From sequence record PP079211.1: 40,137 nucleotides of DNA; one strand, 5' to 3'. This document shows, piece by piece, positions 2,595 to 2,617 of the stretch (its first letter is position 1; every line of letters begins with the position of its first letter). The notes under the pieces are model-generated. The model was not told where the DNA came from, did not search any database, and was given only the letters and a program-made list of their open reading frames with translations. The position numbers and the translations under genes were made by a program. Source of the stretch: Escherichia phage phiHAO1-1.

Positions 2595-2617
2595 ACTTAA
2601 CTATCACTATAGGACTC
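2595..2617 (+). promoter_or_regulatory. Phage RNAP promoter directly upstream of gene 1
   Basis: ACTTAACTATCACTATAGGACTC; one mismatch to the window consensus; +1 G at 2612. Confidence 0.7.

Follow-up and report, generated by a model that had tools for sequence, protein, structure and literature searches.

Gene 1 of Escherichia phage phiHAO1-1, which encodes a single-subunit RNA polymerase, is very probably preceded by a functional promoter for that same polymerase. As judged from sequence comparison, the element directly before the gene is best explained as a class II-like (middle) promoter for the phage's own T7-type polymerase, through which the enzyme would exert positive feedback. As a logical consequence, gene 1 would be under positive autoregulation. 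The analyzed window is the whole 40,137-nt stretch of record PP079211.1 and represents a near-complete K1F-like genome (Autographiviridae, Studiervirinae, Kayfunavirus). As a discovery, the site itself adds little, because it is annotated in genomes of the same genus and the idea of feedback has been published for T7 relatives. The comparative addition made here is that the promoter before gene 1 has been re-tuned each time the specificity of the polymerase changed.

A member of the genome's own promoter family

The site before gene 1 is a member of the genome's own phage promoter family. The initial annotation had described a near-consensus phage promoter at 2595–2617, and its score supports this description. 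With a PWM derived from the nine other strong promoters of the genome, the gene 1 candidate being left out, the site reached 31.6 bits, within the range of 29–36 bits obtained for the other nine by leave-one-out scoring. These nine promoters, all on the + strand, share (A/C)CT(A/T)A(A/G)CTATCACT(A/G)TAGG(G/A), and between −17 and +2 the gene 1 promoter deviates solely where other promoters vary too. No 23-mer with three or fewer mismatches to ACTTAACTATCACTATAGGACTC appeared in 100 dinucleotide shuffles, and the core TCACTATAGG with at most one mismatch occurs 16 times in the genome versus 2.6 times expected.

The promoter is intergenic and oriented on the + strand like the genes, within a 96-nt gap that extends from the end of the preceding open reading frame (ORF) at 2589 to the ATG at 2686 (Table 1). 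Its end lies 68 nt and its predicted start 74 nt from this ATG, in agreement with the distance of 70 nt to the start codon originally given. At the Shine–Dalgarno site of gene 1, AAGGACTTTAAGTATG shows no variation in the clade. In its start, GGACTC, the promoter is similar to those of the early region at 5662, 7696 and 8676 (GGAT/GGAC) and differs from the GGGAGA of the strongest promoters and from GGGAGA/GGGACT at the promoters at 21258, 17458 and 25902. This split is not clean, with two late-region promoters beginning with GGAA.

Table 1 Features of the window that relate to the promoter before gene 1, in order of position
Feature	Position	Strand	Remarks
EcoDS1 host RNAP promoter 1 homolog	319..355	+	
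Host sigma-70-type promoter TTGACA-18-TAGTAT	459..497	+	EcoDS1 host promoter 2 homolog
Early ORF, gp0.38-like (phrog_7066)	2263..2589	+	Stop codon 5 nt 5' of the gene 1 promoter
Phage RNA polymerase promoter (−17..+6), K1F specificity class, ACTTAACTATCACTATAGGACTC	2595..2617	+	Start GGACTC, class II-like
Imperfect hairpin, 5' arm = promoter −11..+6	2601..2664	+	−17.4 kcal/mol, z = −2.4
Predicted transcription start, +1 G	2612	+	Base following TATA, with numbering (−17..+6) as in T7
Gene 1 leader from G2612, 74 nt	2612..2685	+	63% A+T
Shine–Dalgarno AGGA	2674..2677	+	8 nt 5' of the gene 1 ATG
Gene 1, single-subunit RNA polymerase, 893 aa	2686..5367	+	PHROG RNA polymerase, E = 0
Next phage promoter (phi1.1 analog)	5662..5684	+	Followed by T7-type RNase III signature ACTCAAGGTC...GTGGCCTTTATGATT
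Phage promoter, class II-like, GGACAA	7696..7718	+	PWM
gp2-like host RNA polymerase inhibitor	8504..8680	+	phrog_1307, 1.2e-24
Phage promoter, class II-like, GGACAG	8676..8698	+	PWM; G at −3
gp3.5-like amidase/lysozyme	10282..10740	+	phrog_822, 1.2e-79
Phage promoter, GGGACT	17458..17480	+	PWM
Phage promoter, GGAACA	20278..20300	+	PWM
Phage promoter, GGGAGA	21258..21280	+	PWM
Phage promoter, GGGACT	25902..25924	+	PWM
Phage promoter, GGAAAC	33178..33200	+	PWM
Phage promoter near right end, phiOR analog	39435..39457	+	ACTTAACTATCACTATAGG in common with the gene 1 promoter

The promoter before gene 1 changes with the polymerase

Related sequences are abundant: positions 2560–2700 are present in 218 GenBank phage records, and positions 1800–3600 match 214 phage records, with 95–96.5% identity to phages such as ST1749, HC13 and LM33_P1. 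For a broader comparison, IMG/VR was searched with the polymerase, which returned 80 loci at 58–99% protein identity. Loci with at least 88% polymerase identity and available upstream sequence constituted the K1F-like set (n = 20). All 20 contain a phage promoter before gene 1, with a start 74–81 nt from the ATG. Such a promoter was also present in a more distant locus with 78% polymerase identity, corresponding to Citrobacter phage CR8 (Caroctavirus), where the start lies 102 nt 5' of the tblastn match and ~93 nt 5' of the ATGAAC start.

Across the 20 K1F-like loci plus CR8, promoter positions −12 to −8 follow the specificity loop of the polymerase, which reads RLNLMFLGSFNLQ in the window. 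Two loci, L016 and L040, with Cronobacter phage GW1 (Kayfunavirus) as nearest relative, illustrate a first switch. All promoters of these loci, including the pre-gene-1 site, carry AAACCCTCACTATAGGA, which is T3-like at −10/−9, versus AACTATCACTATAGGA in the window, and the leader is still ~90% identical to that of the window despite the changed promoter. Their specificity loop reads RLDLMFLGTFRLQ instead of RLNLMFLGSFNLQ, and its D and R correspond in position to T7 N748 and R756. In T7 and T3 polymerases, these two positions are the ones that contact −11/−10 and −9. CR8 represents the other switch, with all four promoters of the locus, again including the one before gene 1, reading AAGGAAGGTACACT(A/G)TAGG (class AAGGAAGGTACACTATAGG) and a loop sequence of RIKLMFMG. 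Because the pre-gene-1 site was re-tuned at every specificity switch, selection appears to maintain its recognition by the cognate polymerase, for which the co-variation provides strong evidence.

One K1F-like lineage, related to Ro45lw (L010 and also L011, L012, L018 and L019), carries an A at −2 of the pre-gene-1 promoter (CACTAAAGG; L010:2400-2500). In L010, this base differs from the other promoters of the same genome and may weaken the site.

Distribution among T7 relatives

A promoter before gene 1 is characteristic of Kayfunavirus and of some further T7 relatives, and has been annotated in them before. The closest counterpart is EcoDS1 (EU734172, Kayfunavirus), in which the promoter 'phi' at 2244–2266 is the identical 23-mer, located between gp0.38 and gene 1, with 69 nt separating its end from the ATG of gene 1 at 2336. 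EcoDS1 has three annotated host promoters, compared to two homologs in the window, and otherwise differs in nothing substantial. In Citrobacter phage CR44b (Kayfunavirus), a 'predicted promoter' is annotated at 1814–1836 with gene 1 at 1906, and CR8 has one at 3356–3378 with gene 1 at 3460. CR8 differs from the window in its promoter specificity class, AAGGAAGGTACACTATAGG, as well as in its leader and local hairpin. Contrary to expectation, Pseudomonas phage gh-1 (NC_004665, Ghunavirus) has such a promoter too; its annotation places phi1 directly before the RNAP gene, at a distance of 97 nt. The gh-1 phi1 matches the phage's own consensus perfectly and adjoins a putative RNase III site, R1. 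Differences to the window comprise genus, host, promoter consensus (TAAAAACCCTCACTGTGGCTGCA), the near absence of early genes before gene 1 and an R1 hairpin that is annotated 5' of the promoter, without overlap.

T7 itself follows another layout. The initial annotation had stated that T7 lacks a phage promoter directly in front of gene 1, and both the RefSeq record and a pattern scan confirm this: the only promoters shown before gene 1 (3171) are phiOL (405) and the minor Escherichia coli promoter C (3113), with the caveat that phiOL, ~2.7 kb 5', is on the same strand. The T7 promoters phiOL and phi1.1A/B share the −17..+6 architecture and the +1 G with the window's site, and phiOL likewise lies 5' of gene 1; however, it is located at the genome end, phi1.1A/B lie 3' of gene 1, and directly before the gene T7 has only promoter C and the RNase III site R1. 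An artificial parallel exists for T7. Dubendorff and Studier are said to have engineered, in 1991, a T7 'autogene' with T7 gene 1 under a T7 promoter. Like the arrangement in the window, the autogene has a polymerase gene under its cognate promoter and requires a trigger dose of polymerase. It differs in being artificial and, in cells, restrained by lac repressor and lysozyme, whereas the trigger in the window would be host transcription in lytic infection. Later uses of the T7 autogene have been described (PMC6395690, PMC1500874).

The positive-feedback concept is already published for other T7 relatives. In Pseudomonas phage LUZ100, ONT-cappable-seq mapped phi1, a phage-specific promoter directly before the RNAP gene, and a positive feedback model was presented (PMC10134795). 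LUZ100 differs as a temperate-like phage for which a MarR-type repressor was proposed as a gate (PMC10134795); none is evident in the window. For the K1F system, the polymerase, or its loop grafted into T7 RNAP, drives the cognate promoter in vivo. Transcript, transcription start site or in vitro data for Kayfunavirus were not found in the searchable literature, a search that did not extend to the original K1F genome paper.

T7-, T3- and K11-like loci, together with several whose promoters are of another type, were also scanned with regular expressions and for de novo repeats. None of these had a phage promoter within 600 nt 5' of gene 1. Most of them contained only a phiOL-type site, 2.2–3.4 kb 5' of gene 1, and a few contained a phage promoter 630–1600 nt 5' of the gene. 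Phage-type promoters inside the early region were seen in L041 (−631, −1585), L034 (−1405), L044 (−996) and L039 (−1172), which are T3-like and other Studiervirinae (offsets relative to gene 1). Because such early-region promoters lie 0.6–1.6 kb upstream, self-transcribed gene 1 may extend beyond the immediate-upstream arrangement. For SP6, our expectation of a phage promoter before the RNAP gene (gene 8) was ruled out by a scan of positions 1–12000, which revealed no phage promoter 5' of that gene. The records of Kvp1, VP4 and MmP1 have no promoter annotated directly before gene 1.

An overlapping predicted hairpin and possible alternative functions

The promoter overlaps a predicted RNA hairpin (Table 1). 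Only 2 of 200 shuffles fold as well, and comparable structures exist in the L010 (z = −2.1) and L016 (z = −1.8) lineages. The hairpin would be complete solely in read-through transcripts made by the host polymerase, and its position is that of the RNase III site R1 hairpin in T7-, T3- and K11-like phages. The conserved element might be primarily an RNase III site in host-made early transcripts, equivalent to T7 R1, with the promoter-like sequence serving as its 5' arm. Within this arm lies ACTCAAGGTC, which forms the 5' half in the RNase III signature of T7 type, and in L010 a −2 T>A change together with a 1-nt deletion in the 3' arm creates a perfect 10-bp stem. We nevertheless consider this reading very improbable. 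In L016/L040 and CR8, positions −12 to −8 follow the changes of the polymerase loop, and CR8 keeps the promoter in a different hairpin context. In addition, 0 of 18 pairs show a compensatory change, the 3' half GTGGCCTTTATGATT is absent from the hairpin, the full signature ACUCAAGGUC ... GUGGCCUUUAUGAUU as found after the promoter at 5662 does not occur there, and an Rfam search of positions 1–8000 gave no match at E ≤ 1. As a sole explanation, the hairpin fails; it is best seen as a possible second function. Separately, the leader was considered as a structured RNA and rejected, with z = +0.76 for 2612–2700 and z = +0.21 for 2500–2700 relative to shuffles.

A different proposal accepts an active promoter and assigns it another role, namely transcription of genes 1–1.3 after host shut-off, an earlier hand-over during transcription-coupled genome entry or replication priming. 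Transcripts from 2612 would span the downstream genes too, and T7 promoters are known to double as replication origins. The site is also the first phage promoter on the genome, since the left end of the window lacks a good phiOL-type promoter (sites at 270 and 319 score <8 bits with the PWM). Gene 1, however, opens the transcript and is by far its largest gene, so any firing of the promoter would inevitably bring feedback. Genome entry would profit very little, because gene 1 must already be in the cell and the next promoter follows only ~300 bp beyond it. The 63% A+T of the leader lies within the 55–64% found after other promoters, and the leader was accordingly discarded as a candidate A+T-rich origin like the primary origin of T7. 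Taken as the main reason for the site's conservation, such roles appear improbable to us. That the site is a relic, a silent promoter-like sequence inactive in vivo, is barely credible: the sequence is full-length and near-consensus, it is kept in 20/20 relatives, and it was re-tuned via two independent specificity switches. A relic would not track the polymerase in this way.

A dual role combines the promoter with a conserved hairpin or processing site at the T7 R1 position and would entail two isoforms of gene 1 mRNA; we regard it as rather unlikely. If it existed, gene 1 mRNA made by the host enzyme would include the complete hairpin and might be cut there, while phage-made mRNA would start within the hairpin and lack its 5' arm. 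The two isoforms would then differ in processing, stability or translation, and the evolution of promoter specificity would be constrained by the hairpin. The −2A of L010 with its perfected stem may be an example of promoter strength being traded against hairpin stability.

Proposed feedback on gene 1

Our preferred reading, a promoter that serves the phage's own polymerase, suggests the following course of events. Based on homology and sequence, host sigma-70 polymerase would start at the left-end promoters around 319–355 and 459–497, the latter probably giving rise to the earliest transcripts of gene 1, and would read the early genes through into gene 1, with no predicted terminator intervening. 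The first gp1 molecules would recognize 2595–2617 and initiate at G2612 to yield extra gene 1 mRNA with the 74-nt leader. This transcript would run on into genes 1.05–1.3, making the locus a natural 'autogene' with positive feedback. Inactivation of the host polymerase by the gp2 homolog would leave 2595–2617 as the sole promoter in the vicinity from which gene 1 mRNA could be made. By analogy with T7, the gp3.5 lysozyme would presumably restrain the loop, as would lysis. The analysis shows that the site belongs to the promoter family, keeps its position, has co-evolved with polymerase specificity and is followed by no predicted terminator; the start at 2612, the magnitude of the feedback and the braking by lysozyme are inferred.

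Positive autoregulation would follow from a promoter on the same strand as gene 1, a 74-nt leader and the lack of a predicted terminator. A simple, crude scan, which a weak terminator could escape, detected none on the way from the early genes to gene 1, including the stretch that follows the promoter. With another phage promoter only ~300 bp past gene 1 and with host transcription already providing gene 1 mRNA, the feedback might add little. If the loop operates, gene 1 would belong to the middle as well as the early genes, and a small, host-made dose of polymerase could self-amplify and persist after shut-off of the host polymerase. This would be relevant to the speed at which K1F-type phages commit to infection, to the engineering of such phages and to the use of K1F polymerase/promoter pairs in synthetic circuits.

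Further elements of the genome

The left end of the window holds additional features. The element at 319–355 (+ strand), TGACTATAGGTC(C/T)AGACTATGG, is a host promoter according to the EcoDS1 annotation, yet resembles the phage promoter core. In K11-like loci (such as L043, L045 and L051), a K1F-type AACTATCACTATAGGTCTA is located ~57 nt 3' of their own phiOL and ~2.4–2.8 kb before gene 1. Sequences of the 319–355 type look like a conserved left-end element. The counterpart of EcoDS1 640–858, which includes the third EcoDS1 host promoter, is missing from the window. No repeat is common to the first 400 and the last 600 bases, and the sequence as given is therefore without a terminal repeat at both ends. 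Early genes 5' of the conserved block of gp0.38, promoter and gene 1 vary strongly across the clade. A gp0.7 protein kinase is absent among the early genes of the window (671–2589); the relatives GW1 and CR8 have one.

Elsewhere, a canonical T7-type RNase III signature, GACTCAAGGTCATGACTCAAAGTCGTGGCCTTTATGATTA, spans 5679–5725 (+ strand) directly 3' of the promoter at 5662 and represents an R1.1 analog. A weak promoter-like site, CCTAAGATATGACTATAAGATAG, is present at 17487–17509 (+ strand, 16.6 bits), 29 nt 3' of the strong promoter at 17458. A variant promoter, CCTAAACTATCACCTTAGGGATG, occurs at 10976–10998 (+ strand, 25 bits), where CACCTTAGG replaces CACTATAGG; it is positioned 5' of a small ORF at 11049 and the primase/helicase gene.
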